DNA of 56,885 nucleotides. It comes from a virus (lineage: Duplodnaviria > Caudoviricetes). The translations under genes were made by a program, and so were the position numbers. Shown piece after piece: positions 1 to 42,466 of this stretch. Under the pieces are notes generated by a model, which searched no databases, was not told the DNA's origin, and saw only the letters and a program-made list of their open reading frames with translations. The stretch lies in the IMG/VR virus record IMGVR_UViG_3300030109_001059, positions 1-56,885 of that record; one strand, given 5' to 3'. Position 1 is the stretch's first letter; every line of letters starts with the position of its first letter.

Positions 1-372
1 AACGCTGCTCAGAAATTTATTTTGCAGTACGATCATTTTCGGCGGTGGTCTGCGTTGCGTGGTGTAGAGCTTATACCTCATTACACGCATTCTCGTAATA
101 AAGGTGATCCTAAGTATGGTGTGCAGATGTTGGCTCCGTTGTATCGTTTAGGTCGTATTCGGCTTGCAGGAAAACAAGGGACTAATGCTAGACCTAATTC
201 GTTAAGTTTAGTTAATGAAGTAACAAAATGGAATCCAGAAGGCACAGGGTCTAGAACTGATGACTGTGTAATGGCACAATGGTTTGTAGAACATAATCTG
301 GAGAAACTATACGTACCTGCAATTAAGCCGTTAAAACAATGGCGACCTACGTGGGTAACAGCAGAAAGCTAA
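1..372 (+). CDS. terL: Terminase large subunit, C-terminal nuclease end (5'-truncated; module A)
   Basis: Frame open from base 1; TDDCVMAQWF resembles the RNase H-like DDxxxA motif; directly upstream of the portal. Confidence 0.75.
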   Translation, partial: NAAQKFILQYDHFRRWSALRGVELIPHYTHSRNKGDPKYGVQMLAPLYRLGRIRLAGKQGTNARPNSLSLVNEVTKWNPEGTGSRTDDCVMAQWFVEHNLEKLYVPAIKPLKQWRPTWVTAES

Positions 373-376
373 AAAA

Positions 377-2146: not shown

Positions 2147-2514
2147 TGCCTAGAAAAGGTAAAGGACAAAAAATACAAACTGTTGCTGACCAACAGTATG
2201 GTAAAGTTAAAGAGCAACGTGAAGCGCAAGCTGTTGTTCCTTTGCCACGGATGGAAGAACCTCCTAGAGTTGCTATGAAAGCTGGTGAAGTTCCTTTTAA
2301 TAGGCCGACAGAACGACGCAATGAATCTGTGTTAACTCCTCAATCGACAAGACCTGCGAGTAGACCAATATCGACAACACGTAAATTTCAAATGTTGACT
2401 TCATTGCCTGTTTTAGAAAAAATGGCTTCTCAACGAGATGCTTCACCAGAGTTGAGGCAAATAGTTCGTGAGATGCGTGTAGCGATTGGACCTATAGAAG
2501 AACTAGGTTCGTAA
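2146..2514 (+). CDS. Hypothetical basic protein
   Basis: 122 aa, TAATG overlap with portal stop. Confidence 0.6.
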   Translation: MPRKGKGQKIQTVADQQYGKVKEQREAQAVVPLPRMEEPPRVAMKAGEVPFNRPTERRNESVLTPQSTRPASRPISTTRKFQMLTSLPVLEKMASQRDASPELRQIVREMRVAIGPIEELGS

Positions 2515-2515
2515 C

Positions 2516-8500: not shown

Positions 8501-8905
8501 AATTCGCCTTCTGCTGCTGTTCATTCTGGTTTGAAGCTATATTATGATCTTAAAAAAGCAGAACTTAGTGAAAAATATCCGTTGTTTGGTGAAGCGATTG
8601 AAGAATTTAGTTCTTCTAATTATATTGCTGAGGTGATGGAAGGCGCTAGGGCTTTGGTTGAAGAACCGTCGTTAGCGTATAAGCCTTGGATTGGTAGCCT
8701 TGTAGAGTATTTAGATATTCGGAACGATTTTGAAAATGATTTGAGAAGGTTGCCTAGTAGTTCTTTGGAAGCTGATAACAATAGGTTATTAATGTATGAG
8801 TGGGATCAAGTTAGATCTGAATTTGCTACTAGGCCAGATTTTGCTTTGTTTTATTCAAGGTTTTTAGAGAATGATCTTATTCCCAAGAACAGTTGGGCAG
8901 ACTAG
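2516..8905 (+). CDS. Very large putative internal virion/DNA-ejection protein (2129 aa)
   Basis: Size, coiled-coil stretch, SPFFNAWQEVIGRW segment resembling those of large ejection proteins; structural operon context. Confidence 0.55.
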   Translation: MGLYDYLKDKAGDAQNLVDKIIPDPIQEAAKSVPIYGELFQPQRAVTETLRPFVATTNLFRGAGGTVVVIGKNLLFDSGRQIFGNGDRVALWEDPLAAIIQYGREDIARDILGLPLDPENEGMGSGYGLFASKGLGGGTFGLVPEEIRDVTRPAVQEGVEGLHWAFNNLVDNPLSMTFTMIARVQDAAGNNPLNLLDYNTYSVLFDANEWKQAYDVAWVQERSAGQALATGVYAIDPFDEEAYNAIKTNDLFTVISGTADLIKEWKDPLGRIVRGIKLISRGETAIVKLNDAGDLVRIYDYGVPFMPVRQAMPNKIWVVEGTGNVRKIVYDKDITTSAIQKPDSLTPPQGMVSKVKDRFNKPNNLTEQDLALRKTVTTEQAKGMAESKWFNDTWNTVMDAVPDNKFSAQYKSSKIVSTDADQTLINERGVRWRQAAGRKNNTKLPERVQTALATAPSKLAAQRILREYLGDTTVKGEIAEVIRQAGAVLIDSDYGKRIKLLDDVDRAITRARKRIDGTNGKISTLRNRIEKLQEKRELISTEVQPIEIQQARRISDSFEGGIESVDDTRRRILKTRRAANTREINALKQEIEDLKVQRVKDENFVREESVRNDALEAELKIEGQVFNDVHWEYHFDFYNQIKVSQQKKVTLDANGDVSLPKSQVDEWDDLDRITAQIVVDKIVEDALLADNIVKSVGNRKIYQPIGVVHRNHLNKVKETTGNKFTSNHDTVVTTFDKAYSNPSVFLPLGIKALKIFTSRVPQGLIHFTDLGGQSTIMFERAIEDASEFVIGGKRLLSEKEAVEILGKWNEYVFKGEDYSTFVEYYTATMNKLIYRAEGMMRKQDIKVYDDTGALVDIPKDYLVKQLNGAQKDFLNRLDNKEFKPIDMSETKYTVDETGMRGKRIYDKDGQLVTERKAYTEEHTYTNVPVNEGIHTYTYNLSLAQLAECSIIPRFDLLQREINRSMNRTDYFGSGKRGTQKEGKLVDLKRSKYAKAVPVAAKGLQEVWTAGKLLTPRWTVRVLTDEKLRAAAVMGVLPMLGTLNKGFNRWVQNMQARGLNLTDEGFSVALRNELNKDFAKSKDVPKVSNDATLIDIVKFVEERGLNLEAVMDSASARYIEDALRAKEEATKISPSRRKGLGITARALVGGMVNPLLGAGWGFRYWKNRTKNLQKYAVKSSAAQLANAFQIDAARIIGEAADDITVIELAERLSSSGDQLLKDLAWLEDEYNFGLSWADKDKVVSLFDQADMWWEKAGYPRQTIGNATFGNAWGSDLRFQRMSQRQLSSANSLDTSMRGPVAAAKRQINENIGEGWEIVDVLKEGVTASQMRTAWTRTYMQMSRTGTNEISFYNIMYNDSLSHVQKVEAIAALIENTPRLQRKYQIKGYEGKGADRKIFKEIAEDAIDEVNDFLPPEYFPDLRAKVRAGEEISWDDVKSTLTDPEFIARHGFDGSKANEIIAQIRIKDNSSRGGFGKARDSISQPSAKQEGFIKWTRDLIDKTFQNLGTGAADDISRGPFFESRYRTHLIDSAAPYAKADGTYDLTPADIIRMEDEARKAAFKDTREVMYELAEHSEFAEMVGFMSPFFNAWQEVIGRWAGLAIENPAFAYKGVRLFTKDDVELPILGLTQEEDQYGNLNVVFRPKDSALASLLVNPKFTNSISDAANQVLPSSPIGSVGELVDEVGIKLDKDGLFTMLTKTTPSAGPFITLPLRTFMFDFKKPEIEKVAGWMFPFGHPDGNFVERFVQEFTPSWADHLYYTALDPDNPFRFGNKQNYGLTMIDMVTYLDVKAREAGTPYDYTDPEVQSSVIAKAEEMTQSVGFLKFLATTVIPVASAEGSPYEPYIIKLNQLEEHGRVIGKEPEWAVNQFLSIYGEEFFFLSGNATRNAKGVAPTIESFKLSQEHKDFIEKYPVMTSVVTNSLRVSAIEDGAFSPAVQQIFMNEGWREIYTPEEFIKQTEVSRGYTELNAWKDSPIDGVEGSPSYNQLLYANDGLSNSPSAAVHSGLKLYYDLKKAELSEKYPLFGEAIEEFSSSNYIAEVMEGARALVEEPSLAYKPWIGSLVEYLDIRNDFENDLRRLPSSSLEADNNRLLMYEWDQVRSEFATRPDFALFYSRFLENDLIPKNSWAD

Positions 8906-8914
8906 GATAGTGTT

Positions 8915-10057
8915 ATGGAGTTAAGCAATAAAGCTAAAGATAATTTAAAGAGAATATTCGGCGACAACATAGCTGAGCAAATTATTGCACAGTATGAATC
9001 TGTTGAAGATTCTATAATTTTTAAACAAATTGAAAAAAGTTGGGAAACTGATTTTGCAAGTATCGAAGAATATGATGCAAACTCGTTGCTTACACAACCG
9101 GAAATACTTGGACTTTTTAATCAAACAATTCTTGAAAATAATAAATTAATAGGACTTAGTTCAGTAAATCCTGAAGGTGTTACTAAAGGTGAATTAGATA
9201 GTTTTCTTATAGAGGTAAGAGACAGCGATGAGTTTAAAAGTGTTTTGTCGTTAACTACTCCTACTTTGGGAACAATTAATCCTGAAATGGTTAGAGAAGG
9301 ATTTATCCCTGAAGGCACAGAAGGGGTAGTAGCACCAGCTACGTCTTTGGGAGTTAGACCTACACCAGAAACTACTTATAGTACTGATGAGGAAGAAGCG
9401 TTAGCTGAGCTTTTTTCTGAAACTGATGAATGGTTTATTAAAGAAAATATAGGTGAAGTACTTAATTATTTGCCAGATGACCAGAAAGCATTAATAGCTA
9501 TTGAATTAGCGTTTGTGAATATTGGCAATATGGGCGATATTTTTAGGTCTGATGGTTCGTTTGACAATACTGCGTTTAATAACCAGATGCTAGAAGCGTA
9601 TAGAATGATGGAAATTGCTAAACCTACGTTGCCTGTTACTGATGTAGGTGGTGTTCCAGTACCTGCCCAGTTTGGTACTGGTGATCCGACAACGTTTAAT
9701 ATTTTAACTGGTCAAAGCGGAAGAACAGTAGAAGAAATACAAGCCTTATTTGAATTAGGTATAACTCAAGAACGAGAAGAAGAAGGTTATAAAGATTACG
9801 ACCCTGTGTATTTAATGGATGCTGTTAATAACAAAGCTGGCCAGATGTTAGGTATTGAATTAACAGAAGCGCAGAAACGAGCGTTTGTTGTTTTTATGAA
9901 AGAAACAGTTGACCATTATTATACTGATAATATGCAAATGCCTATGGTAGATTCTCAAGCTAAAAAGTTTGTGCAAGAAGAGTTCCCTAAATTGTCTCTA
10001 GCTGAAGCTGAGGGTTCGACTATTAGAGCTATTGAAGCTGCTGTTAGGAATATGTAA
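8915..10057 (+). CDS. Acidic hypothetical protein, probable internal virion protein
   Basis: 380 aa in the structural operon. Confidence 0.5.
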   Translation: MELSNKAKDNLKRIFGDNIAEQIIAQYESVEDSIIFKQIEKSWETDFASIEEYDANSLLTQPEILGLFNQTILENNKLIGLSSVNPEGVTKGELDSFLIEVRDSDEFKSVLSLTTPTLGTINPEMVREGFIPEGTEGVVAPATSLGVRPTPETTYSTDEEEALAELFSETDEWFIKENIGEVLNYLPDDQKALIAIELAFVNIGNMGDIFRSDGSFDNTAFNNQMLEAYRMMEIAKPTLPVTDVGGVPVPAQFGTGDPTTFNILTGQSGRTVEEIQALFELGITQEREEEGYKDYDPVYLMDAVNNKAGQMLGIELTEAQKRAFVVFMKETVDHYYTDNMQMPMVDSQAKKFVQEEFPKLSLAEAEGSTIRAIEAAVRNM

Positions 10058-10072
10058 TGATAGATTTGGGTT

Positions 10073-12187
10073 ATGTTTTTGCGTTGGTTGGTAGTGTTGC
10101 TGATGGGAGGCACTATGGCTATTCCTAATATTGATTGGAATAAGTTTGAAAATTTAGCTGAAACTGACGGAGATTATAAGTTTGCGCTTGAGTTGATTAG
10201 GTCGTTTGATGCGGAAAAAGCTACGTTGGATTCTCAAAGAAGAGTTGAAAATGAGTTGCGTGATTCACGTAATCAAAATATAGAGTTAGAACGTGCGGTA
10301 ATTATGGCGCATGAAGGTTTCCGTGAAAATGCTTATTCAGATCCTTTGCGTGGCGATGATGTGCCGACTATAGGGTTTGGGTTTACTGGTGGCGTTCAAC
10401 CTGACGACACTATGGATAAAGAAACAGCTCTTGCTCGTTTAGATCAAGAAATTGAAAAACATAGAGAAATTTTATTTGCTGAACTTGCATTGAATACCGC
10501 TAGTTTGCGTAAAGGTAGTAGCGATCAAGATTATATTAATAGGTTTGGTGATGGTTGGCAGTATGATTTTATTAGTTCGGAGGCTGATGGTGAAGAATAC
10601 GCTCCGTTGCCTTCAGGTGCTACTGAACCGTATGTTGAATTAGATCAATATAGTCATGTAACTATTTACGGGTTTGAGAATAGAGAAGAGTTGTTAGCTG
10701 CTGGGCAAGAAAGGTATCAGTCTTTAGATGCGAATACGCAAGCTGCGGTTATGTCAATTACGTATAATTATGGTTCTGCTGGTGGCCCAGATTTTGTTAA
10801 AGAAATTAATAAAGCTGTAGATACTGGCGATGTTTTAGCGTTAGCTGATTATATTGATAACACAGAATATGGTTTAGCTGCTAATGATGGCGGTGCTTTG
10901 TATGGCAGGCGAAATGATGAAGCTAATCTTATAAGAACTGGAAGAAGTAAAGAGGTTGCTGCACACGCAGCTACTGGCACGTTAAAAGAATTTGGTATGG
11001 GCGATCCGTTCCAAGGTGGTAGCGCTGCTCTTCCTAAAGACACGGGTTATGTTGGAGCTACTAGATCTCGCAATCAAGGTACTGCCCGACAAAACCGCAT
11101 GTCGTCTAGGGCATTTATGGCAGATGGTTCTTTACCTCCTTCTGGGACGCAAGCTCAACCTGCTCAAGAAACAACTTTAAGTAGTAGCGGACCGTTTTTA
11201 GGAGTTCCATCTTTTGCGGATACGTTAGGAGATGCAACTGGTTTAAGTGAACAATACGGTGCGTTTGGTTTCTTTATGTATGACCGTGACATAAGAGGTG
11301 ATTTATATATCGGGCTTGATATTAATGGTAACCCTGTTGCATATAACGATCCTTCAAAATTAATGGAAGTAGACGTTGTTACTTATATAGAATCAACCAA
11401 TATAGACCCGACTACTGAAAACGCTATGCTGTACCAAATTCCGAGTTTGTTGCGTAAAACTGAATGGGGTATGGAAAATAATTCACGTATGCGTGAGTTC
11501 GATGTTGAGTATCAAAAGAAGAGTGAAGCAGATCGTTTAGAATTTTTGCAAGCAACTATAGATCAAGTAAGCGATAGCCTTAGAGGTCTTGGGTATGAGT
11601 TATCTGACCAAGAAGTTTATAATTTAGCTTATCAGTTTCAAAGATTAAATGGCCCTGTTACACAAACAAATACTGATACGTTGTATAAAACTATTTTTGC
11701 TGAAATTGAAAATAAAGAAATGGTTAATGAGTTAAATGAATTTCAAGGAATGGTAGAAAATACTTTAGTAACTGCTGGCGATTATTATTTAAATATGAAT
11801 GAAGAACAAGCTAGAGAATATGCAGAGCAGTTGCTTACTGGTGATTTAACTCAAGAAGAATTTAAACAAATGTTGCAGGATCAGGCGTATATTGCTTATC
11901 CGCATTTAGAAGAGCAAGCTACAAAATTAGGGGTGACTCCTAAGCAGTTACTTTTTAATACTGAAACATCTATTGAGAATTTGTTAGGTAAGAAAGTTGA
12001 TTTGCGTGATAGTAAATGGAATCCGGTTATAAATTATGTTGATAATTCAGGTAGCCCTAGATTGATGACTACTTGGGAAGCAGAAAATTATGTGCGTTCT
12101 ACTGGGGATTATTTAGGTAGTAACAAAGGGCAAGAAAAGATATATAGTCTTGTTGATGCTTTAGCTGATTCGTTTGGAAGGGTTTAG
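10073..12187 (+). CDS. Virion-associated protein with GH24 (phage lysozyme) domain; start may be 10115
   Basis: HEGFRENAYSD...PTIGFGFT, AVMSITYNYG and GRRNDEA match GH24 motifs; GGGAGG RBS precedes the MAIPN start. Confidence 0.7.
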   Translation: MFLRWLVVLLMGGTMAIPNIDWNKFENLAETDGDYKFALELIRSFDAEKATLDSQRRVENELRDSRNQNIELERAVIMAHEGFRENAYSDPLRGDDVPTIGFGFTGGVQPDDTMDKETALARLDQEIEKHREILFAELALNTASLRKGSSDQDYINRFGDGWQYDFISSEADGEEYAPLPSGATEPYVELDQYSHVTIYGFENREELLAAGQERYQSLDANTQAAVMSITYNYGSAGGPDFVKEINKAVDTGDVLALADYIDNTEYGLAANDGGALYGRRNDEANLIRTGRSKEVAAHAATGTLKEFGMGDPFQGGSAALPKDTGYVGATRSRNQGTARQNRMSSRAFMADGSLPPSGTQAQPAQETTLSSSGPFLGVPSFADTLGDATGLSEQYGAFGFFMYDRDIRGDLYIGLDINGNPVAYNDPSKLMEVDVVTYIESTNIDPTTENAMLYQIPSLLRKTEWGMENNSRMREFDVEYQKKSEADRLEFLQATIDQVSDSLRGLGYELSDQEVYNLAYQFQRLNGPVTQTNTDTLYKTIFAEIENKEMVNELNEFQGMVENTLVTAGDYYLNMNEEQAREYAEQLLTGDLTQEEFKQMLQDQAYIAYPHLEEQATKLGVTPKQLLFNTETSIENLLGKKVDLRDSKWNPVINYVDNSGSPRLMTTWEAENYVRSTGDYLGSNKGQEKIYSLVDALADSFGRV

Positions 12188-12189
12188 AT

Positions 12190-13155
12190 ATGGCAAATGG
12201 GCCGTTTTTAGGAGTGCCTTCGGAAGAAGAAATTAATGAGGCAATAGAACAAGAAACACAAGATAATTTGTATGTAGGGCAAAATCCTTTTATAAATCAA
12301 AATATACCAGTACCAGATACACCAGAATATAATGCAGACGAAGCATACGACATACTTGAAGACTTGTTAAATCAATATGATTTACCTTTATCTTTAGTAG
12401 ATACAATTAAAGAATGGGTTTCTTTAAATCTTTCAGTTCAGCAGATGACAATTCGGTTACGAGGAACAGATGAATATAAAGATCGGTTTGCTGGTATGGC
12501 TACTCGTAGAGAAAACGGTTTGAATCAAGTTTCAGAAGCTAGATACCTTGAATTAGAAAGTGGTTACGCTAGTGTTTTAGCTGAATTTGGTTTGCCTAAA
12601 TCTTTTTATGATTCGCCTGAAGATTTTGCGTCTTTTATAGGCAACGATGTTTCGCCTGAAGAATTTGCTACACGTACAGCGTTAGCAGCGCAAGCAGTAT
12701 CAGAAATTGATCCTAATTTAGATGAAGAGTTACGGCGGTTGTATCCAGAAATAGACGACGGAGATTTAATATCGTATTTCTTAGATCCTGATAGGGCCGT
12801 TACTTTAATGGAATTAAAACTGCAAATGACTGCTGCTGGGTTATCTTCTACAGCTAAAAGCACTTTAGGTGAAGGGTTTAGTACTGGTGTGGCTGAACAG
12901 TTAGCTAGGCAACCTGATGTGCAACCAGTTTCAGTGCGTGCTTTAGCATCTAGCGCTGGTTTAACACAGTCTACGTTAAGAAGCGAAGGCGTTTCTGTTG
13001 ATACGTTAGCTTCTTCTGCTTTTGGGTTAGACGCTGATGACGCTACTTTAGTTAGGCGTATACGTGAAAGAAGGCAACAGACGCAACAGTCTGGAGCTGG
13101 TGGTTTGTTGCAACAAACTGGTGCTTCTGGGCTAGGCGCTGCACAAATGGCTTAG
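12190..13155 (+). CDS. Hypothetical virion protein
   Basis: 321 aa, last gene before the scaffold promoter. Confidence 0.5.
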   Translation: MANGPFLGVPSEEEINEAIEQETQDNLYVGQNPFINQNIPVPDTPEYNADEAYDILEDLLNQYDLPLSLVDTIKEWVSLNLSVQQMTIRLRGTDEYKDRFAGMATRRENGLNQVSEARYLELESGYASVLAEFGLPKSFYDSPEDFASFIGNDVSPEEFATRTALAAQAVSEIDPNLDEELRRLYPEIDDGDLISYFLDPDRAVTLMELKLQMTAAGLSSTAKSTLGEGFSTGVAEQLARQPDVQPVSVRALASSAGLTQSTLRSEGVSVDTLASSAFGLDADDATLVRRIRERRQQTQQSGAGGLLQQTGASGLGAAQMA

Positions 13156-13159
13156 GTTG

Positions 13160-13188
13160 TAGACACAAACCTTAATTCTTTATATATT
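13160..13188 (+). promoter_or_regulatory. Sigma-70/SigA-type promoter upstream of the module A scaffold-capsid genes
   Basis: TAGACA-N17-TATATT in an AT-rich intergenic gap. Confidence 0.55.
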
Positions 13189-13283
13189 TATATTTGTGAT
13201 CTGCCCCATTAAGAGGGTGAGCCGTTCACACACAAAAAAAATTAACTCCGCTAACATGCCACCGTTGTTAGCGTGTACCAGAG

Positions 13284-13763
13284 GTGAGTGACATAATGGA
13301 AAATGAGTCTACAGAAACCGAAGAAGTTTCTAGTACTGAATCCAAACCAAATTGGCGTAGAGAACTTGAAGCGAAAGCTGCGAGGGCTACTGAGCTTGAA
13401 GCGCAAGTTGAGCAGATGCAACGTAAAGAAGTGTTCCGTGATGCTGGCTTAGATCCATCTAATAAGATGACTGAGTATTTCATGAAAGGCTACGAAGGCG
13501 AGCTATCTGTTCAAGCGATACAAGCTGAGGCTAACGATGCTGGGTTGTCTGCTATGACGACTACAGCTAGTATCGGCAATTTGGCAGAGCAGCAGGCGCA
13601 AGCAAATCAGTTTGAAACGGAGCGTAGAATCCAACAAGCTGGCGATGATGCTGGTCCTGTGGCAGATGCTAACCTTATTGAGTTAATTAAACAAACTAAA
13701 AACCCTGAAGAATTACGGGCAATTTGGGAATCTAATGGCGGTACTTGGAACGCAATGGTGTAA
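13284..13763 (+). CDS. Capsid scaffolding protein, module A
   Basis: Acidic coiled-coil 159 aa protein immediately before the capsid gene. Confidence 0.65.
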   Translation: MSDIMENESTETEEVSSTESKPNWRRELEAKAARATELEAQVEQMQRKEVFRDAGLDPSNKMTEYFMKGYEGELSVQAIQAEANDAGLSAMTTTASIGNLAEQQAQANQFETERRIQQAGDDAGPVADANLIELIKQTKNPEELRAIWESNGGTWNAMV

Positions 13764-13794
13764 GTAGGCTCCAAACTTAATTGGAGAAACTACA

Positions 13795-14733
13795 ATGGCA
13801 ACTACAGGAACGGGACAAGTAAGTTCCGATACCGCCGCATTTGAACAGTTAGCGTATTTCGCTCTCCGTTCACAACCTATGTTTGAGATGGTATGTGACG
13901 TAAAGTCAACTAACCAGTCTCATGCAGGTGCTAGCGTCCAATTCAACATTTATAGTGACCTTTCTCAAGCTACATCAGCTCTCACTGAAGCCAGTGACGT
14001 AACTGCTGTTGCGCTTGGTGATTCAACGGTTACTGTAACTCTTGCTGAATATGGTAACGCTGTCACCACAACCGCTAAACTCCGTGGAACCAGCTTCTTA
14101 AACGTAGACGCTGACGCTGCGAACATTATCGGTTACAACATGGCCAACAGCCTCGACAATATCGTTCACGGTATTCTTGTCGCTGGAAGCAACGTGCTGT
14201 ACGGTGGCGATGCCACAGCTACAGGAGAACTAGCAGCAGGCGATATTATGACCGCTGCTCTTGTCCGTAAAGCTGTTGCTAATGCCCGTGCTGCATCTGC
14301 ACCTACTTTTGATGGAGGCGTTTACGTTGGATTTATCCACCCTGACGTTTCCTACGATTTACGAAATGCTACTACGGTAACTGACGTAATCGCACACCAA
14401 AACCAGCAAGACGCTGGCGCTATCCGAACAGGTAGCATTGGTGTTTATGGTGGTGTTGACTTCATTGAAACCCCACGTTTGGACATTGGTACAAACGCTG
14501 GTGCTTCTAATGTTGACGAGTATGAAACCATTATCTGTGGTAAGCAAGCTATGGCAAAAGCCGTTAGCCGTGCAGCCGGATTTGGTGAAGACCCCAGTGT
14601 CGTATTTGGTCCTACAACTGATCTCCTCCGACGTTTCAACCACGTTGGCTGGTATCACCTTGTTGGGTACTCACGATTCCGTGAAGCATCCATCAGAAGG
14701 ATTGAATCTTCATCCTCAATAGGCGCTAACTAA
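13795..14733 (+). CDS. Major capsid protein, module A (N4-gp56-like)
   Basis: 312 aa; VTLAEYGNAV, YVGFIHPDVSYDL, GSIGVYGGVDFIET and DLLRRFNHVGWY motifs; GGAG RBS; followed by a terminator. Confidence 0.85.
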   Translation: MATTGTGQVSSDTAAFEQLAYFALRSQPMFEMVCDVKSTNQSHAGASVQFNIYSDLSQATSALTEASDVTAVALGDSTVTVTLAEYGNAVTTTAKLRGTSFLNVDADAANIIGYNMANSLDNIVHGILVAGSNVLYGGDATATGELAAGDIMTAALVRKAVANARAASAPTFDGGVYVGFIHPDVSYDLRNATTVTDVIAHQNQQDAGAIRTGSIGVYGGVDFIETPRLDIGTNAGASNVDEYETIICGKQAMAKAVSRAAGFGEDPSVVFGPTTDLLRRFNHVGWYHLVGYSRFREASIRRIESSSSIGAN

Positions 14734-14752
14734 TAGCTCCTAACGATAGTTT

Positions 14753-14797
14753 GGGAAGGCTAACTTTACTGGGAGGTTGGCCTTCCCTCTATCTTTT
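14753..14797 (+). terminator. Intrinsic terminator after module A capsid gene
   Basis: GGGAAGGCTAACTTT/GAGGTTGGCCTTCCC stem followed by TCTATCTTTT. Confidence 0.6.
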
Positions 14798-14905
14798 AAT
14801 GTGTTAGTATATTATTATTAACGGTTATGGAAGACGAACAAGTAGATGTGGTTATAACTGCTGAGACGATACAAGCCAGTGTTGTAACTGATAAGGAGAA
14901 CGCTG

Positions 14906-15334
14906 ATGGCTAGCGGACTTTATGGGATAACGTTCCTAAACGCTTTAAAAAATACTCTTGCGTTAGATTTAGACAGCGACACTATTAAAATAATGTTAGT
15001 TACGTCGTCGTATACGCCTGATTTTGGAGCGCACGATTTTAAAGCTGATGTAAGTAATGAAGTTTCTGGAACTAATTATACTGCTGGTGGTAATACGTTA
15101 AGTAGTTTGGCTTTGACTCAGACAGGTGGCACTATTAAGTTTGATGCTGCCGATACGTCATGGTCATCTGCGACGATTACAGACGCTAGAGGCGCTGTGA
15201 TTTATGACGATTCTTTAACTGATGATCCGCTTATTGCGTATATTGATTTTGGTGCTAATTTTTCGTCGAGTAATGGCACGTTTACAATTGCGTTTAATGC
15301 TGGTGGTATTTTCACGATTGATTTAACTCCGTAG
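14906..15334 (+). CDS. Small phage structural protein
   Basis: EVSGTNYTAGG, FDAAD, ARGAVIY and LIAYIDFG motifs recur in phage structural regions; AAGGAG RBS. Confidence 0.6.
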   Translation: MASGLYGITFLNALKNTLALDLDSDTIKIMLVTSSYTPDFGAHDFKADVSNEVSGTNYTAGGNTLSSLALTQTGGTIKFDAADTSWSSATITDARGAVIYDDSLTDDPLIAYIDFGANFSSSNGTFTIAFNAGGIFTIDLTP

Positions 15335-26912: not shown

Positions 26913-26932
26913 GTCGCGTGTACGCGACACGG

Positions 26933-26957
26933 TGGGACACTTAGCACTACTTATAGG
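26933..26957 (+). promoter_or_regulatory. Putative late promoter TGGGACA-N12-TATAGG (copy 2)
   Basis: Exact motif and spacing; adjacent to the palindrome at 26913. Confidence 0.65.
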
Positions 26958-26964
26958 AGGTAAC

Positions 26965-27150
26965 ATGCCAAAAGGTGAAGGTTACGGAAATTTTGAAGAT
27001 ACGTTTGGTTCGCAAGACAAGCAACCTTACGATTCTTCTTCGTCTGAGAACATGGCTGACATGGCTGTGAAGGCGAAGAAAGACGCAGCGTATCTACGTT
27101 CAACTAATTTAGGTAACGCTCATTCCAATGGGCGACCATTCGGAAAGTGA
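26965..27150 (+). CDS. Small hypothetical protein (MPKGEGYG...)
   Basis: AGGAGG RBS before the ATG at 26965. Confidence 0.6.
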   Translation: MPKGEGYGNFEDTFGSQDKQPYDSSSSENMADMAVKAKKDAAYLRSTNLGNAHSNGRPFGK

Positions 27151-27156
27151 GGCATT

Positions 27157-27195
27157 ATGCCTAAGAAACGTAAACCCAAAAGGCCTAAGTACTGA
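27157..27195 (+). CDS. 12-aa basic micro-ORF MPKKRKPKRPKY
   Basis: GAGG upstream; TGATG coupling to the next ORF; fills the gap. Confidence 0.4.
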   Translation: MPKKRKPKRPKY

Positions 27196-28370
27196 TGGCT
27201 ACTAGTTTGGCTGCTATTCTTGCAGCAGCAGGTGCAGCAGCAAATACAATAAATGCTCCTTCTTCTACTGGTCGTGGCGGAGGTGCGTATAGTAGTTCAA
27301 CTCCCACACCGCAACCACCTTACAGCAACAACGCTATCCGTAGCGTAGACGCTCGTATCCCTGCGCCTATTCCAAGGGACGCTGGTGTCGGCCAACTAAA
27401 AGTAAGCAGACCTGATGAGGCAAGAAAACAGTATGAGGCAGCAGGAGGAACCGATCAATTAGGAACTCCGCTAGGTACTTATTTACCTAATACAGGTAGT
27501 CGTTCAGACCAAGCAAGAGCTACAGAATTTGGGCTGGATGTCTTGGATGAAAGAAATAGGCAGTTGCAAGTGGGTAGGCAAACAAACCCTGCCCAACGGC
27601 AAGCAGATATGCGACGTTTCCTTGCTATGGAAACTGATTATGACAAGGTTCTAGGTGGTCCTGATCCTTCTAATGAAGCACGACGACCTCAAGAGCAAGC
27701 CCCACGGTACGGTAATCCTTACAATGAGTCTGATAGAGATGCCCCTGATTCGGGGTATCCCTCTGGAGGATTGGATAGAGTAGCCGACACAGGTGATTAT
27801 GAAGGTGGCTTTAGGTTTGGCACTGATCCGCTAGGTAAGCAGTTAGCGCTTCAAGCTGCTGCGCTAGCTAGCAAACCCTATGTTCGAGCTGACGCTTTCA
27901 CCTCTGGAACTGCTGACCCTATGACTAATACTTCAAGGGCGTATTGGGAAGGGATGTTCCCTGACTTTGGAATAGGCGAACCATACGGTTTAGACAGGAG
28001 AGGATCAGCCCTAGGTCCAGACCAAAGATTCCTGCCCAAAGACCACCGTTACACCAACTTTGGTCCCATTTCCAGAGGAGGGCCACCATCGTCGAACGTT
28101 GACGCTTACCCGCAGGTAACAGGTTCTCAATTCGGGCCTTACCAAGCTACAGCGTTTAACCCTGCTTTAAACACTTCGCTTTCTCAAGGCCCTATGTCAG
28201 GACCGCAACACTTGATCCCCATAGGTTACGATTGGTATGAGCAAGACCCACGACAGACCCACCCAACTGGAGGTCAAATAAATCGTGCAAGGGCAGCTAA
28301 CGCTCTACGAGCGCAAGATCATTACAATCGTGCTTGGGCTGCTGGGCCAAGCTACGGTGGAGGCTACTAA
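27195..28370 (+). CDS. Low-complexity G/P/A/Q/R-rich hypothetical protein
   Basis: 391 aa ORF coupled on both sides. Confidence 0.55.
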   Translation: MATSLAAILAAAGAAANTINAPSSTGRGGGAYSSSTPTPQPPYSNNAIRSVDARIPAPIPRDAGVGQLKVSRPDEARKQYEAAGGTDQLGTPLGTYLPNTGSRSDQARATEFGLDVLDERNRQLQVGRQTNPAQRQADMRRFLAMETDYDKVLGGPDPSNEARRPQEQAPRYGNPYNESDRDAPDSGYPSGGLDRVADTGDYEGGFRFGTDPLGKQLALQAAALASKPYVRADAFTSGTADPMTNTSRAYWEGMFPDFGIGEPYGLDRRGSALGPDQRFLPKDHRYTNFGPISRGGPPSSNVDAYPQVTGSQFGPYQATAFNPALNTSLSQGPMSGPQHLIPIGYDWYEQDPRQTHPTGGQINRARAANALRAQDHYNRAWAAGPSYGGGY

Positions 28371-28558
28371 TGACTGAACAAAACAAAGGGTTCAACATAA
28401 CGAATTGGGTTGAACGCACTGTTTGGACGGCAGCACAGTCCTTTCTCGCTATCTTTGTTGTAACTGACCTTTCAACGTTAAAAAGCGCAGCCACCGCTGG
28501 GGTAGCTGCGCTTCTATCGGCAGTAAAGTCTTTAGCTCAGGAGCGTTTGAAAGGTTAA
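28370..28558 (+). CDS. Holin (r1t-like), module B
   Basis: WVERTVWTAAQSFLA...LLSAVKS; GGAGG RBS; TAATG coupling. Confidence 0.65.
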   Translation: MTEQNKGFNITNWVERTVWTAAQSFLAIFVVTDLSTLKSAATAGVAALLSAVKSLAQERLKG

Positions 28559-28561
28559 CCA

Positions 28562-28876
28562 GTGTCGTCTGATGAACAGTTTGAAGATGAATGGGCTGAC
28601 TTCATGGCCATTCAGGGGCTGGACATCGAGGAAGAGATCGATCAGGAGATACAGGCGAACAAGTTTCGTTTAGATATGGACGATGGCACTCACGCCCAGT
28701 GGGATGGGGAGAGCCTTGGTGTTCTTATTGTCTTTGATCGGGGAGAGCCTGAGGAGATATTGAAGTCGTGGGAGGATGCTTCTAGGGGGAATCTTGTGGC
28801 GTTGACTGCTTTGTTTCATTGGTTGGAAAGCTTTTCTTTTTTCTTGATGGATTGCATGCAACAAAAAGATCATTAA
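28562..28876 (+). CDS. Acidic hypothetical protein
   Basis: 104 aa, last + strand gene before the convergence point. Confidence 0.5.
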   Translation: MSSDEQFEDEWADFMAIQGLDIEEEIDQEIQANKFRLDMDDGTHAQWDGESLGVLIVFDRGEPEEILKSWEDASRGNLVALTALFHWLESFSFFLMDCMQQKDH

Positions 28877-28898
28877 CTCGTCGCGTGGACGCGACGGG

Positions 28899-29312
28899 TT
28901 ACAGTCCGAGTTTGTCTCGAACTACCTCGTGTTTAAGTAGTTCGTTACGAATTTTCTTAGCTAGTTCATCTCTTTGTCTAGCGAACGTTGTTTTAGGTAT
29001 GTTTAATGTTCGTGCTACGAACCGCATGGATAGTCCTACTTCTACGAGCATGTGGTATATCCATTGTTCTTCTTCTGTTAGTGTATCGAATGTTGCTTGA
29101 ACGGCAAGAACGAGGTCAGCGTTTAACCGACCTCGTTCTTCTTGAGATAATGCAGGTTCTATATATGGGCCTGCACTTATTAATGCTTCAGCTACGGTAT
29201 CAGGGATACGTTCTGACGCTACTCCAAATGATTTTCGTAAAGGTTGGAGAGAGGGAAAGTTTAGATCTTTTAACCTCTCGAATATGAGTTCCCCCTCTGT
29301 GGGGTCAGTCAC
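28899..29312 (-). CDS. Sigma-70 region 4-like HTH protein
   Basis: LTEEEQWIY...GLSMRFVARTLNIPKTTF...KKIR pattern; no obvious region 2. Confidence 0.65.
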   Translation of the reverse strand: MTDPTEGELIFERLKDLNFPSLQPLRKSFGVASERIPDTVAEALISAGPYIEPALSQEERGRLNADLVLAVQATFDTLTEEEQWIYHMLVEVGLSMRFVARTLNIPKTTFARQRDELAKKIRNELLKHEVVRDKLGL

Positions 29313-39295: not shown

Positions 39296-39461
39296 TGTTA
39301 TTATCCTTTGTTAAGCCGTCGCGTGAACGCGACGGGAACTTACATCAGGTGAGGTAATGTGAAAGCCGAGCCTTGATTGTTTTAAGACATCTCTTTATTC
39401 GGCATTTGTGGTAGTTCGTCACTCTACCCATCAGGGTTTCACACCTCTCCCACCAACACCT

Positions 39462-39490
39462 ATAGTAGCACCGTACAAAGCTTGCGTCAA
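39462..39490 (-). promoter_or_regulatory. SigA-type early promoter
   Basis: Minus strand TTGACG-N17-TACTAT. Confidence 0.7.
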
Positions 39491-39659
39491 GTATCCCTAG
39501 ACTCACAGGACCGCTCGACATACCACTCGCCACGATCACGCACTACCGCCAGAACAGCTCACCATGACGCTGTGACCACGATCAAAACTGCCGTCGCGTG
39601 CTCGCGACGGCCCCGACCAGCCCACAACCAAAACGTCAAGAGCCAACAGGCAACAAGAC

Positions 39660-39692
39660 AAAAAGAAACCCCGTCGCGTGCTCGCGACGGGG
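39660..39692 (-). terminator. Intrinsic terminator built on the palindrome
   Basis: CCCCGTCGCG/CGCGACGGGG stem followed on the minus strand by TTTCTTTTT. Confidence 0.55.
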
Positions 39693-39793
39693 AATCTTAA
39701 CGGGAGGCTACTTGCGGGATCTTCTATATTTAATAGTATCCCAAACAAACCAGCCGATACAGCCGATCAGTGCAAGTTCTACAAGTATGAACA

Positions 39794-40036
39794 TCAGCCC
39801 ACAGCCTTTCCACCCATAATGGATTTATACTGCATATACATGCGTTCACATTGCTCATAGACATGATCCTGTTTAGCAGTAGCCAACCTGTTGAAACCAT
39901 GAATAAACTGAAATGCTTTAACAGGTTCACATTCAAATAGAACATGAAACTTATGGATAGCTATTTGTTCCTCAGGAGATACAATATAAATTCTATCTTC
40001 TGGAACTTCCATTAATTCATTTTTAATTGCACCCAT
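39794..40036 (-). CDS. Hypothetical early protein
   Basis: AAGGAGG RBS. Confidence 0.55.
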   Translation of the reverse strand: MGAIKNELMEVPEDRIYIVSPEEQIAIHKFHVLFECEPVKAFQFIHGFNRLATAKQDHVYEQCERMYMQYKSIMGGKAVG

Positions 40037-40048
40037 TTAGGGCCTCCT

Positions 40049-40576
40049 TTATTTCGCAGGCGTGAACGTGATACAACCGCTCTCGCCAACTTGTTGTTTA
40101 TTACCATCAGCCCACTGTTCATCTATAGCTTGAACAGTAGAACCAACTTCTACTTCGCCATGACATGACTCACACCACGAGTTCTCAAACGCCAACTGCT
40201 CACGCAAAAGAACACGGTAATCATCAGACAACTGCCAGACTTGCTCCAACTTGGACACGCCATTAACTCTCTCACGAAGAAAGAACAACGGCTCAACCGC
40301 CATAAAAGCAGAAACACCATGTAGGTCTATCCACCGATACTTGTTGTAGCCATTATGCACCAGAACCTGACAAGGCTTATCACCCTTAATCAACTCCTGA
40401 ACAGGGAACTGTCGCACGCGCTGATGAACTGCAATCACACTAACATTAAACCGAAGATCAATCACCTTAAACTCTTTGTGACCTTTCACCCATTGGTGAA
40501 CCCTCTGATTTAACAGGAACTCAGCATCATCAATATGCAAACGACAATTACATCTCGCTGCTGTAGTAGCAACCAT
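40049..40576 (-). CDS. Hypothetical early protein (start MVATT at 40576)
   Basis: AAGGAG RBS before the ATG at 40576; CNC and CESC Cys pairs. Confidence 0.55.
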   Translation of the reverse strand: MVATTAARCNCRLHIDDAEFLLNQRVHQWVKGHKEFKVIDLRFNVSVIAVHQRVRQFPVQELIKGDKPCQVLVHNGYNKYRWIDLHGVSAFMAVEPLFFLRERVNGVSKLEQVWQLSDDYRVLLREQLAFENSWCESCHGEVEVGSTVQAIDEQWADGNKQQVGESGCITFTPAK

Positions 40577-40656
40577 ATTATTGTCTCCTTTTCTTGTATC
40601 CCGTCGCGTGAACGCGACCAAGGATAGGGAGAGGTCTATCCCTCTCACCAACACCA

Positions 40657-40685
40657 ATACTACTACCCGCAACAGCTTACGTCAA
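40657..40685 (-). promoter_or_regulatory. SigA-type early promoter
   Basis: Minus strand TTGACG-N17-TAGTAT. Confidence 0.7.
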
Positions 40686-40818
40686 CGACCCAACACGTCA
40701 CAGCACAGCTCTAACCACGATCAAAAATAAGACACACCACAGAACAAACCACCACTCCGCTACAAACCACTATCAATAATGCGTCGCGTACACGCGACCA
40801 CCTAACCTGAGGTAGGAC

Positions 40819-40855
40819 AAAAAAATATCCCCGTCGCGTAAACGCGACGGGGATA
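40819..40855 (-). terminator. Intrinsic terminator built on the palindrome, after the 338-aa gene
   Basis: TATCCCCGTCGCGT-AA-ACGCGACGGGGATA 14-bp perfect stem followed by T7 on the minus strand. Confidence 0.7.
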
Positions 40856-40866
40856 CTTCTTCGGTG

Positions 40867-41883
40867 CTACTGAGTAGCTCTAATGTTCTTATTAAGCTGT
40901 ATGACTTGCGCTAGCTTATCGCTTGCAGTCTCCAAAGCTTTAAAGGTTACATCATCAAGCTGTCTCACATCAGCCTCAAGAGCTATGACCATCGCGTTAA
41001 TGTTCGCGACGATGGGCGCTACCCTGTCAAGGTCATTAGCATGCTTTGCCAGTTCAGCTTCTATAGCTTCTTCAGCCTCCCTAGCTTTATCTTCCCGCTG
41101 CTGCTCTTTCAGCGCTTCTGCCTCTTCCCTTTTCTTCTTCGCATTTGGGTCAGGCTGGCGAGTCACCTTAACTAGGTTATGGTTAACAAGTGCTTGCCTG
41201 AATTTCTTGGCCTTGGCACTCTTATCGCTAGACTTGGGCATTTGCTCACCATTGCCCGTCATGATCGATAACGCTATCCGCTTAGCTTCAGCGTTAGCCT
41301 TGAAGAAAGGCTTAACCGCATTAGGTTGGCCAAGTTTCTTAGCTTCGCCGTGACGCTTGATGAGAGTAGCTTTCATCTTCCTGACCATAGGCCAGTTGAA
41401 AGTATTTCTTTCATCATCACCAACTAGGCGACGGTACTGCGCTAGCGCTTCAAATGGCCTCGAAGACCTCGCGCCAACATTTGCAGCAACAAGACCTATG
41501 GCCTTATTCATAGCGCTAGCCGTGGGCAACTTATCACCTTTCTCATACGCTTTATTCTTGCCCGTAGTATCCGCGCAAGCGATAGCGAAGATCATCTGGC
41601 CCGCGCCTATCCACTTGCTTAGATTCTTACGCTCATTTCTAAAGCGCTGATCAGATGTCTTGATTTCCTTATTAGGTTGACCAAGATCAGCCCTAACCTT
41701 TTCAATTAAGATAAGGGTGATCATTTCAGCTCTTGCAGCTTTCGTATTCCGCTGCGATTGCTCTTGCCCTATGAGATAAACCAACTTCAACCATTCATTA
41801 AGTGATTGGTCTTGGGCTTGCCACAAGCCGACTATCTCTCTTGCTTTCTTAATGGATTTAATGTCTCCCGACTGTTGAGCCAT
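40867..41883 (-). CDS. Basic, Ala/Lys-rich hypothetical protein; outermost early gene
   Basis: 338 aa; AAGGAG RBS; own promoter and terminator. Confidence 0.6.
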   Translation of the reverse strand: MAQQSGDIKSIKKAREIVGLWQAQDQSLNEWLKLVYLIGQEQSQRNTKAARAEMITLILIEKVRADLGQPNKEIKTSDQRFRNERKNLSKWIGAGQMIFAIACADTTGKNKAYEKGDKLPTASAMNKAIGLVAANVGARSSRPFEALAQYRRLVGDDERNTFNWPMVRKMKATLIKRHGEAKKLGQPNAVKPFFKANAEAKRIALSIMTGNGEQMPKSSDKSAKAKKFRQALVNHNLVKVTRQPDPNAKKKREEAEALKEQQREDKAREAEEAIEAELAKHANDLDRVAPIVANINAMVIALEADVRQLDDVTFKALETASDKLAQVIQLNKNIRATQ

Positions 41884-41937
41884 ATTCAGTGACTCTCCTT
41901 TCGTGTATCCCTTGGGCCTATCCCAAGTGATAACCCT

Positions 41938-41966
41938 ATTTTAATCCCGCTCTAGTCTTGTGTCGA
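41938..41966 (-). promoter_or_regulatory. SigA-type early promoter
   Basis: Minus strand TCGACA-N17-TAAAAT. Confidence 0.6.
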
Positions 41967-42466
41967 ATACCCTGACCAGTAATCCACCACAGAGGACGAC
42001 ACAGGCACGACACAGGCCACTAAAACAAAGCGTCGCGTACACGCGACAAGACAGGCCACGCAAGGCCACGCAAGGCAGCCCGTAGGCCACACCTGACAGC
42101 CTAGGGTCTTCACCTGTTACCGCTCTAGTATTCCCGCCCGCCGTGCTGATGCCCGTCGCGTCGACGCGACGAGGGTGCGACCAGACAATGATGTTCTGAT
42201 CGTGGGCATGGGGGGACCCTTGGGGGGGTACTACGGCCTCAACCATTTATGTATAGATATGGATGGACAGTGCGTGAGGTTTTTTTTCTTGGCCGTGGGG
42301 GGTGTGTGGGGGTGTTTTGGTTGTTCTTCGGCCTGTATCCCTTCTTTTTTCTGTTTGAAGGTTGTGATACAGGGATACAAGGAGTAGGGTTGGGGGGGAG
42401 GAGGGCGCTCTGGGGGAGCGCCCTCCTCCCCCCCCTACTTATATCACCTTTGTCCCACAAGCATTG

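Follow-up and report, generated by a model that had tools for sequence, protein, structure and literature searches.

Thirteen copies of an intergenic palindrome in the early arm of an uncultured marine phage: a possible operator network that doubles as RNA punctuation

The window analysed in this study is a whole virus record (IMG/VR IMGVR_UViG_3300030109_001059; 56,885 bases, 46% guanine plus cytosine, GC) of an uncultured marine phage, and the element in question is a 16-bp palindrome, GTCGCGTNNWCGCGAC (GTCGCG-TNNW-CGCGAC), which stands at 13 exact sites in it. Genes up to position 28876 point rightward, those between 42246 and 28899 leftward, and those from about 42250 onward rightward once more. 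Within the leftward arm, family assignments were obtained for a sigma-like protein, RusA, a primase, a DnaB-like helicase, an exonuclease, a WhiB protein, a GP88-family protein and a DUF932 protein, alongside many small proteins without a family. The WhiB family is associated with actinobacteria, and its presence points to an actinobacterial host. Relatives were found by protein-guided searches as fragments and two complete genomes (G405 and G406), all of one marine phage clade. Compared with the palindromes of these relatives, the 13 copies appear to be this phage's version of an intergenic palindrome family that is clade-wide and lineage-specific in sequence. Tentatively, they may form an operator network for a phage-encoded, DNA-reading regulator, resembling the conserved inverted repeats (CIRs) of phage phiC31, with the same sites doubling as terminator and punctuation hairpins in RNA.

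The palindromes and their setting

An exact scan gave 23 strand matches to the motif in the window and none in 100 dinucleotide-preserving shuffles, in agreement with the original prediction of 13 copies with a variable 2-nucleotide (nt) centre. The copies span 26913-42170 and eight of them cluster, as had been noted, at 39.3-42.2 kb, with none in 1-26.9 or 42.2-56.9 kb (Table 1). The inner arms (GTCGCG / CGCGAC) carry zero substitutions in 13/13 copies, the + strand centres are of nine kinds (GT, GG, TT, GC three times, TC, GA twice, AC twice, AA and CG), and 10 of the 13 sites are perfect palindromes. The T..A that flanks the centre, which cannot pair in a hairpin, is kept in 10/13 copies. 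Allowing up to two mismatches added one site, at 33775 within whiB, where 0.26 were expected. Contigs of the same phage recovered from other marine metagenomes represent its natural variants, and in these the 33499 copy is altered only at its two central bases (33506-7, TT to CC). The same-phage contigs also show cassette changes at 34255-34532 (276 nt replaced by 220), 37246/37247 (180 nt inserted) and 39351-39443 (91 nt replaced by 15).

All 13 palindromes lie outside credible genes in our gene model, as the original prediction held for intergenic gaps. The overlaps that exist are of five copies with dubious open reading frames (ORFs), at 41941-42246 (42032 and 42155), 39536-39748 (39593 and 39673) and 33481-33669 (33499), and of the 40603 copy with a TTG-extended start of 40049-40672. 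The finer placements claimed earlier also stood up, namely three copies beside ribosome-binding sites (RBSs; 33499, 39318 and 40603), one at the point where convergent genes meet (28880) and two inside - strand terminator stems (39673 and 40833). Copies are indeed absent from 43-57 kb and from the part of the record that had been called module A; the latter absence carries little weight, because the complete relatives lack a counterpart of 1 to ~15.3 kb, which is probably foreign DNA.

A hairpin followed by a T-run, the canonical terminator shape, is clear in 2/13 copies (40833 and 39673), with weaker T-rich tails at 39593 and 42032 and none at the other nine. On the sense strand, a second copy stands 50 bp past 40833 (40783) and 80 bp past 39673 (39593), and past each tandem pair come two TGATMGTGG boxes and a promoter-like site, whose leader closes with a third copy (40603 and 39318). 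The stretches 40880-40560 and 39720-39300, each of about 300 bp, are paralogous cassettes. The promoter-like sites P1 to P3 count as consensus matches because the promoter scan, with 16 hits against 19.4 expected from shuffles, showed no enrichment; only their position and the paralogy of P2 and P3 add to their credibility. The TGATMGTGG box occurs 8 times in the window, against 0.5 expected, is also conserved in the relative L120, and may be a second regulatory motif. Boxes were seen at 39530, 39576, 40715 and 40767 (-) and at 42197 (+), two upstream of each of P2 and P3 and one in the divergent region. Around the 42032 copy, tandem repeats at 41985-42017 and 42053-42076 (11 bp x 3.1 and 10 bp x 2.4) are iteron-like, possibly the sign of an origin or of an operator array.

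Table 1. Palindrome copies, promoter-like sites and genes of candidate readers in the window (aa, amino acids; SD, Shine-Dalgarno; HTH, helix-turn-helix)
Feature	Coordinates	Strand	Context
Palindrome copy	26913..26928	+	0 nt after endolysin stop (26912); 36 nt before ATG 26965; no outer stem
Palindrome copy, convergence point	28880..28895	.	3 nt after stop of 28562-28876 (+); 3 nt after stop of 28899-29312 (-)
Palindrome copy, exonuclease leader	33499..33514	-	Ends 14 nt before ATG 33484; between anti-SD-like CCTCTCC and GGAGAGG RBS
Near-match ATCGCGTACTCGCGAC	33775..33790	.	In whiB; may be degenerate or chance
Palindrome copy	35394..35409	-	2 nt after stop of 35412-35663; sense loop AGCA; 4-position outer stem with one sense-strand G.U
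Palindrome copy	37204..37227 (core 37208-37223)	-	4-bp outer stem; 27 nt after stop; 43 nt before TTG 37164
Palindrome copy	39318..39333	-	Ends 22 nt before ATG 39295; end of leader from promoter-like P3
Palindrome copy, second of tandem pair	39590..39611 (core 39593-39608)	-	T-rich tail; then TGATCGTGG boxes and P3
Palindrome copy, canonical intrinsic-terminator shape	39669..39692 (core 39673-39688)	-	10-bp stem, then TTTCTTTTT
Palindrome copy	40603..40618	-	Leader from promoter-like P2; ends 26 nt before ATG 40576
Palindrome copy, second of tandem pair	40783..40798	-	No outer stem; upstream of TGATAGTGG, TGATCGTGG boxes and P2
Palindrome copy, canonical terminator shape	40827..40854 (core 40833-40848)	-	18 nt after stop of 338-aa gene; 12-bp stem, then T7 run
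Bare palindrome copy, divergent control region	42032..42047	.	66 nt upstream of P1 -35; embedded in short direct repeats
Palindrome copy, divergent control region	42155..42170	.	Centre CG
Promoter-like P1 (TCGACA-17-TAAAAT)	41938..41966	-	Precedes 338-aa first early gene; consensus match only
Promoter-like P2 (TTGACG-17-TAGTAT)	40657..40685	-	Paralogous to P3
Promoter-like P3 (TTGACG-17-TACTAT, preceded by TG)	39462..39490	-	Sigma-70-like consensus match
138-aa protein, C-terminal HTH of sigma-region-4 type	33898..34314	-	Weak candidate reader
338-aa basic (isoelectric point, pI, 9.8) first early protein, no family	40867..41883	-	Alternative candidate reader

Beyond this phage, the motif of the window was found in none of the relatives, and a megablast of 26-44 kb of the window against a phage collection gave no match. 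A 16-mer scan of viral contigs hit at least 114 stretches, among which 80 of 114 matches were listed (77 contigs with a single copy, one with two distant copies and one with two adjacent copies); no relative was found among the matches listed. The same core with a free centre, GTCGCGT-NN-ACGCGAC, occurs 77 times in a genome of Nocardioides rubriscoriae (G004; locus L162 and others), with longer stems; most of these copies lie close behind stop codons, and tandems spaced 42 bp apart are frequent. The same 20-mer also forms the hairpin of a CRISPR-like array of ~73-bp period in a metagenome-assembled genome of Proteobacteria (L182, L230).

These cellular copies raise the explanation that the phage palindrome is directed at the host or selfish, either as a repetitive extragenic palindromic (REP)-like element or as a mimic of a host repeat such as an RNA decoy of a CRISPR repeat, its sequence tracking the host strain. 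Anti-CRISPRs made of solitary-repeat RNA have been described in the available text of PMC10651486. Yet only the stem, not the whole repeat, is common to the phage and the CRISPR-like array, and the positions of the phage copies are orthologous and patterned by function. Of the 401 Acidimicrobiia genomes sampled, 68 had a motif match, with at most four copies on one strand, and a search for the RAYT transposase (Y1 type; PF01797) gave 0/2 for the window and G004, where control genomes gave matches. Nocardioides is a soil genus, and the G004 loci inspected look, by eye, far more GC-rich than the phage. Overall, we regard this explanation as very unlikely.

Constraint on folding and on sequence

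Each copy may be described in three layers, namely the invariant inner arms, a short free loop and an outer stem that is present in about half of the window copies. Hairpins of the window and its relatives were aligned on the core (n = 42, non-redundant; orthologues are included, and the counts are not independent events). The four CGCG pairs are invariant and the two pairs outside them vary only between lineages, and the five positions beyond these pair in 52-76% of the 42 hairpins, with four to five pair types each. The covariation score of 0.404 compares with 0.186 in shuffles (0/500 reach it) and with at most 0.21 when partners are slid. Flank pairs 1-4 are Watson-Crick in 29/52 cases in the window, 26/44 in L145 and 20/36 in L283, where a fraction of 0.25 is expected. 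Among single sites, the 37208 core with 12 nt per side folds at -29 kcal/mol, and the outer stem at 28880 has six positions, five of them Watson-Crick and one that reads A.C (- strand) or G.U (+ strand). Because the outer stems vary with compensating changes, the sites fold as single strands, most simply as RNA. Pairing alone does not explain why, in addition, the inner arm keeps a single sequence within each lineage. Loops differ between orthologous copies of close relatives.

The original prediction held that conserved arms with a free centre fit a dimeric protein site better than a plain RNA hairpin. Its first half is supported by a sequence-specific constraint on the arms, seen in their invariance, in their concerted switching between lineages and in the anatomy common with phiC31. 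Its second half did not hold, as the outer-stem covariation, a 14:3 sense-strand excess of internal G.U pairs and the two canonical terminators oppose it. The prediction had also described pure terminators as sites of which relatives conserve only base pairing; between lineages, position and pairing are kept and sequence is not, whereas within a lineage sequence is strict.

The folding evidence bears directly on a second explanation, in which a lineage-specific RNA-binding or RNA-cleaving protein reads the hairpins and the DNA palindrome is only their template. Such an RNA-level regulon would work like coat-protein/operator or Cas6/repeat pairs and would control the termination, processing, stability or translation of early cistrons. 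Besides the outer-stem covariation and the two terminators, it is consistent with the G.U excess, which was counted in 43 non-redundant sites, some of them orthologues that inflate it (binomial p = 0.013), and with one L128 copy that retains pairing only as G.U. The last loop base on the sense strand is A in 22/22 copies (13/13 in the window and 9/9 in L283), including all six asymmetric loops. Start codons follow four of the window copies at 14-43 nt, and the exonuclease leader can pair its anti-SD with its SD around the hairpin.

Several features do not fit a purely RNA-level role. Copies upstream of promoter-like boxes or in the divergent region need not be transcribed and are without outer stems; operator-like copies of this kind are 42032 and 40783, together with three identical copies in the control region of L283 (4390, 4457 and 4526). 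The T..A by the centre, though unpairable, is kept, and the palindromes of distant kin have a centre of 0-2 nt. Among the window proteins no RNA-binding domain was found, and Rfam gave no family at the gathering score, with sub-threshold microRNA-like rows on two long hairpins only. Overall, we hold the RNA-level regulon to be somewhat unlikely, though it is the foremost rival to the CIR-like operator network.

The leader and control region mentioned here have further features of their own. In the exonuclease leader (33484-33560 in the window), an CTCTCCCT element complementary to the leader's own RBS was seen in every relative (L120, L127, L126, L134 and L153), lying next to the family palindrome or else inside a 14-bp hairpin as part of its loop, and this element may serve translational control. 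In the divergent control region of L283 (4390-4550), the three identical copies are spaced 67 and 69 bp apart and the last ends 3 nt before a TATAAT box. Two perfect 20-bp hairpins of a G-run and a C-run, similar in design, lie at 33579-33624 (-) and 42392-42435 (+); a 76-nt stretch around the former folds at -49 kcal/mol (z = -7.4) and an 86-nt stretch around the latter at -60 kcal/mol (z = -6.1). The hairpin at 33579-33624 is conserved upstream of the exonuclease gene across the clade with compensating changes.

Lineage-specific types and candidate readers

Within each genome the palindrome type is uniform, and five types were found among close kin, including that of the window (13/13). GGCGCGC-N3-GCGCGCC occurs in L120/L145 (one contig, 12 copies, 11 in L145 and one in L120), L128 (7), L129 (5), L130 (5) and L131 (6); ATCGCGC-ANT-GCGCGAT in L132 (5 copies); ATCGCG-N4-CGCGAT in L144 (4 copies); and CACGCA-N4-TGCGTG in L283 (9 copies, or 11 with a looser core). 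No examined genome mixes types. Many copies occupy orthologous gaps with recognisably conserved flanks, among them the gap upstream of the exonuclease RBS, the one that follows the 83-aa gene and the one that precedes the 152-aa gene, and the pair of a terminator and a second copy recurs in relatives. Copies have also been gained or lost: the window lacks counterparts of the L145 copies that flank the GP88 gene on both sides and of the one that precedes the DUF932 gene.

More distant kin (~65% GP88 protein identity), including the complete G405 and G406, have no multi-copy GC-rich palindrome. They carry instead two to five copies of ATGTCAYGTGACAT, GGTTCCACGTGGAACC, TCACATGTGA or TGACCACTTGAGTGGTCA, which are CACGTG-centred with a 0-2-nt centre and lie mostly 2-12 nt upstream of an RBS. 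L133 (88% identity; 1764 bases, with little beyond the gene) has no palindrome. Because distant kin keep RBS-proximal palindromes of another sequence, the positional logic is read as clade-wide and the palindrome sequence as lineage-specific.

The closest comparison is that of L144 and L145, whose DUF932, exonuclease and replication proteins are 94-99% identical, with DNA stretches at 96-100%. Their palindrome type differs at 4/4 shared gaps, and at two of these the outer stem differs as well. The flanks are mosaic, and 2/3 of the shared gaps that can be assessed on both sides fall exactly on sharp identity changes, the fourth gap lying at the end of L144; other mosaic boundaries of this pair lie away from palindromes. 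All copies switch together between lineages, and fast.

Replacement of whole hairpins, outer stems included, at these sharp boundaries is what a third explanation would expect, in which there is no specific reader and ordinary terminator or punctuation hairpins have become uniform through modular spread and recombination, serving mainly as crossover points. The two paralogous cassettes of the window, the cassette indels at 37246/7 and 34255-34532 in natural variants and the copy gain and loss between relatives are in keeping with it. However, selection for pairing alone leaves the contrast of invariant inner arms and drifting outer stems unexplained, as well as the differing loops among copies with identical arms and the absence of mixed-type genomes despite mosaic flanks, and the boundaries away from palindromes also speak against it. 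Hairpins without any reader are, in our view, improbable. The earlier suggestion of cassette-boundary recombination sites is weakly supported by the mosaic boundaries just described, although searches of the window with PF00589 and PF00239 found no tyrosine or serine recombinase, as the original prediction had also reported for integrase. Its alternative of parS-like loading sites was not supported, as a six-frame PF02195 search of the window found no ParB.

The concerted switching also admits a reading of the palindromes as lineage-specific "address tags", by which a fast-evolving phage protein would read the folded RNA (or RNA and DNA) and so time termination and translation in the early regulon. 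This is unlikely in our estimate; if true, the clade would hold at least five mutually orthogonal hairpin/reader pairs, and the idea could extend to the repeats of the Cluster O and Cluster EG phages discussed below.

In the CIR-like operator network that we tentatively prefer, the element would be bifunctional, of the phiC31 conserved-inverted-repeat kind. On DNA, the invariant core would bind a phage-encoded, sequence-specific regulator, probably dimeric, which would act at the bare promoter-adjacent and between-gene copies as an operator or roadblock and so control the early arm. Once transcribed, the hairpins would end transcripts at the two canonical terminators, each followed by its second copy, and would also cap cistron ends just past stop codons and sit just 5' of RBSs.

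A possible reader named earlier is the HTH protein at 33898-34314, for which a confident helical model was obtained (predicted local distance difference test, pLDDT, 79). Foldseek on this model gave no match at E <= 0.001. Its recognition helix follows the palindrome class, reading KQRISEL in each of the four CGCG-type phages examined; L127, L126, L150 and L134 have RQRAHDM there, and L153/L154 have RQRIHML; L127 and L126 carry CACGTG-type palindromes, and none was found in L134 or, in one scan, in L150. The first HTH helix varies with type, being TALANDIG in the window, VKLAGKFG in L145 and L128, and VELGRRFG in L144. The earlier candidacy is therefore kept in weakened form, as some variation of the protein tracks type but the recognition helix is constant between types, and the case for this weak candidate is suggestive only.

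The 338-aa protein, the alternative candidate, has no relatives in the viral contigs, no Pfam or PHROG family and weak atlas leads only. At the same position L283 encodes a 339-aa protein without similarity to it. Two further proteins were considered and rejected. The acidic 83-aa protein at 35412-35663 tracks type with three alleles, but with a pI of 4.6, and with Cys/His residues that distant kin do not conserve, it was rejected as a nucleic-acid reader. L144 and L145, though of different palindrome type, have DUF932 proteins of 96% identity, and this protein is therefore not the specificity determinant.

Several observations weigh against the CIR-like operator network. The sense-strand signs given above (the G.U excess, the last loop base and the L128 copy) point to the RNA level, and neighbouring copies are spaced 39-123 bp apart without helical phasing. 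For the HTH protein, the fold search gave weak sigma-region-4/HTH rows (best E 0.39), the recognition helix is identical across three palindrome types, and the correlation of helix and type is not independent evidence because the groups are clades; a sigma-4-like HTH protein could equally read the TGATMGTGG boxes. In agreement with the earlier remark that a classical repressor is lacking, no Pfam or PHROG repressor was found among the window proteins, and the phiC31-repressor family PF25746 gave 0/5 records in a six-frame search and nothing below E = 2 by tblastn. The phiC31 parallel itself leans on the repeats found in that genome being, as we presume, the CIRs bound by the phiC31 repressor.

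The surrounding sequence offers some further observations. The early arm codes for two small sigma-region-4-like proteins (28899-29312 and 33898-34314) and a WhiB-like protein (33654-33920), a set that suggests takeover of the host RNA polymerase via sigma region 4. Across the whole window, CCGG was observed 8 times against 131 expected, ACGCGT 2 against 10, and CGCG 60 against 131, with 26 of the 60 CGCG within palindromes; this scarcity looks like restriction-site avoidance overridden by the palindromes.

The region 1-15300 (genes g1-g10; GC 0.35-0.41) holds a second major capsid protein (13795-14733), a portal-like protein and a 2129-aa protein. G405 and G406, the complete relatives of 38-40 kb, match the window at 15.3-56.9 kb, where the other capsid gene of the window matches theirs at 96-98%. 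The record is probably a chimeric join at 1-15.3 kb, or carries there a foreign insert beside tail-fibre-like genes. A Pfam scan of the 2129-aa protein, an 1841-aa protein and four others of the structural region gave no family and no sign of a virion RNA polymerase, and an N4-type hairpin-promoter reading was set aside as unsupported on this ground.

Comparison with known systems

The closest anatomical match is phiC31. A scan of its genome found 15 copies of ccTACTCACGTGAGTAgg, 14 of them intergenic, with 44/60 flank pairs complementary and variable outer stems; one of them forms a T-run terminator, and another follows it 39 nt further downstream. To our knowledge, phiC31 is the only case among actinophage intergenic palindromes for which a reader has been identified. 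Both phages have many copies with invariant arms (15 and 13), nearly all intergenic and a few nt after stops or before RBSs, with CC/GG flanks, variable complementary outer stems and a terminator followed by a second copy, as at 40833/40783 and 39673/39593. They differ in that a homologue of the PF25746 repressor and an integrase were not found in the window, and in that the phiC31 core is a continuous 14-bp palindrome whereas the window core has a 4-nt free loop. Unlike in phiC31, the window copies are concentrated in the early arm and the core switches between very close relatives.

Bacterial REP elements resemble the window palindromes as multi-copy extragenic palindromes that follow genes and have a genome-specific sequence. 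They differ in that no RAYT transposase was found in the window, and that the window belongs to a phage genome, with 13 copies that are also start-associated.

The stoperators of Cluster A mycobacteriophages, with which the original prediction had compared the sites, are 20-30 sites in short intergenic gaps that block elongation, and their motif differs between related phages and tracks the repressor, according to the available text of PMC6550527. In the same text they are asymmetric and oriented with transcription, and the available part of PMC9283540 describes the repressor as binding as a monomer. The comparison holds for the intergenic placement and for a motif that varies by lineage. Stoperators are nevertheless a poorer analogue than phiC31 because they are asymmetric and oriented, whereas the window sites are palindromic hairpins, 10/13 of them perfect, and an immunity repressor was not found here.

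The early promoter and stem-loop (PeSL) cassettes of T4-type phages, as described in the available text of PMC4122927, are modules of an early promoter and a stem-loop between small variable early genes, at which indels and replacements end. The hairpins without a reader weighed above would be PeSL-like, and the window has two paralogous terminator/promoter cassettes, with some mosaic or indel borders at palindromes and others elsewhere. Here, by contrast, the unit is a 16-bp palindrome, often without a promoter, and all copies change together between lineages.

Multi-copy intergenic palindromes have already been noted in several actinophage groups. Cluster O mycobacteriophages carry 17-bp repeats, TGTTCGGNNNCCGAACA, whose function the authors left open while considering a dimeric protein site (PMC4351075), and Microbacterium Cluster EG phages carry 18-bp repeats (PMC7302621). 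In the available text of both papers, copies number from 8 to more than 30, recombination between copies is noted and function is left open (PMC4351075, PMC7302621). Like the window, these are actinophages whose repeats have invariant 7-8-bp arms and a free 2-3-nt centre and mostly occupy short intergenic gaps in the non-structural arm, in many cases immediately upstream of starts. In Corndog (Cluster O; 25 copies in 40-69.8 kb), 35/100 flank pairs were complementary against 0.27 expected, showing no outer-stem complementarity and an asymmetric ccccac flank, whereas outer stems and terminators are prominent in the window. Furthermore, Clusters O and EG keep one sequence cluster-wide, as far as the available text of those papers goes, whereas five types occur here among close kin.

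Against these systems, what appears new is the switching of orthologous palindromes between near-identical genomes and the clean split of a core that seems to be read as sequence from an outer stem that seems to be read as structure, the two being separable within one hairpin. The clade amounts to a natural experiment, with different palindromes in the same gaps of near-identical genomes, and given more complete genomes a reader could be found by co-variation alone. If a reader exists, the five or more types would be candidate orthogonal regulator/site pairs; if it does not, the clade would be a clean case of concerted terminator evolution.

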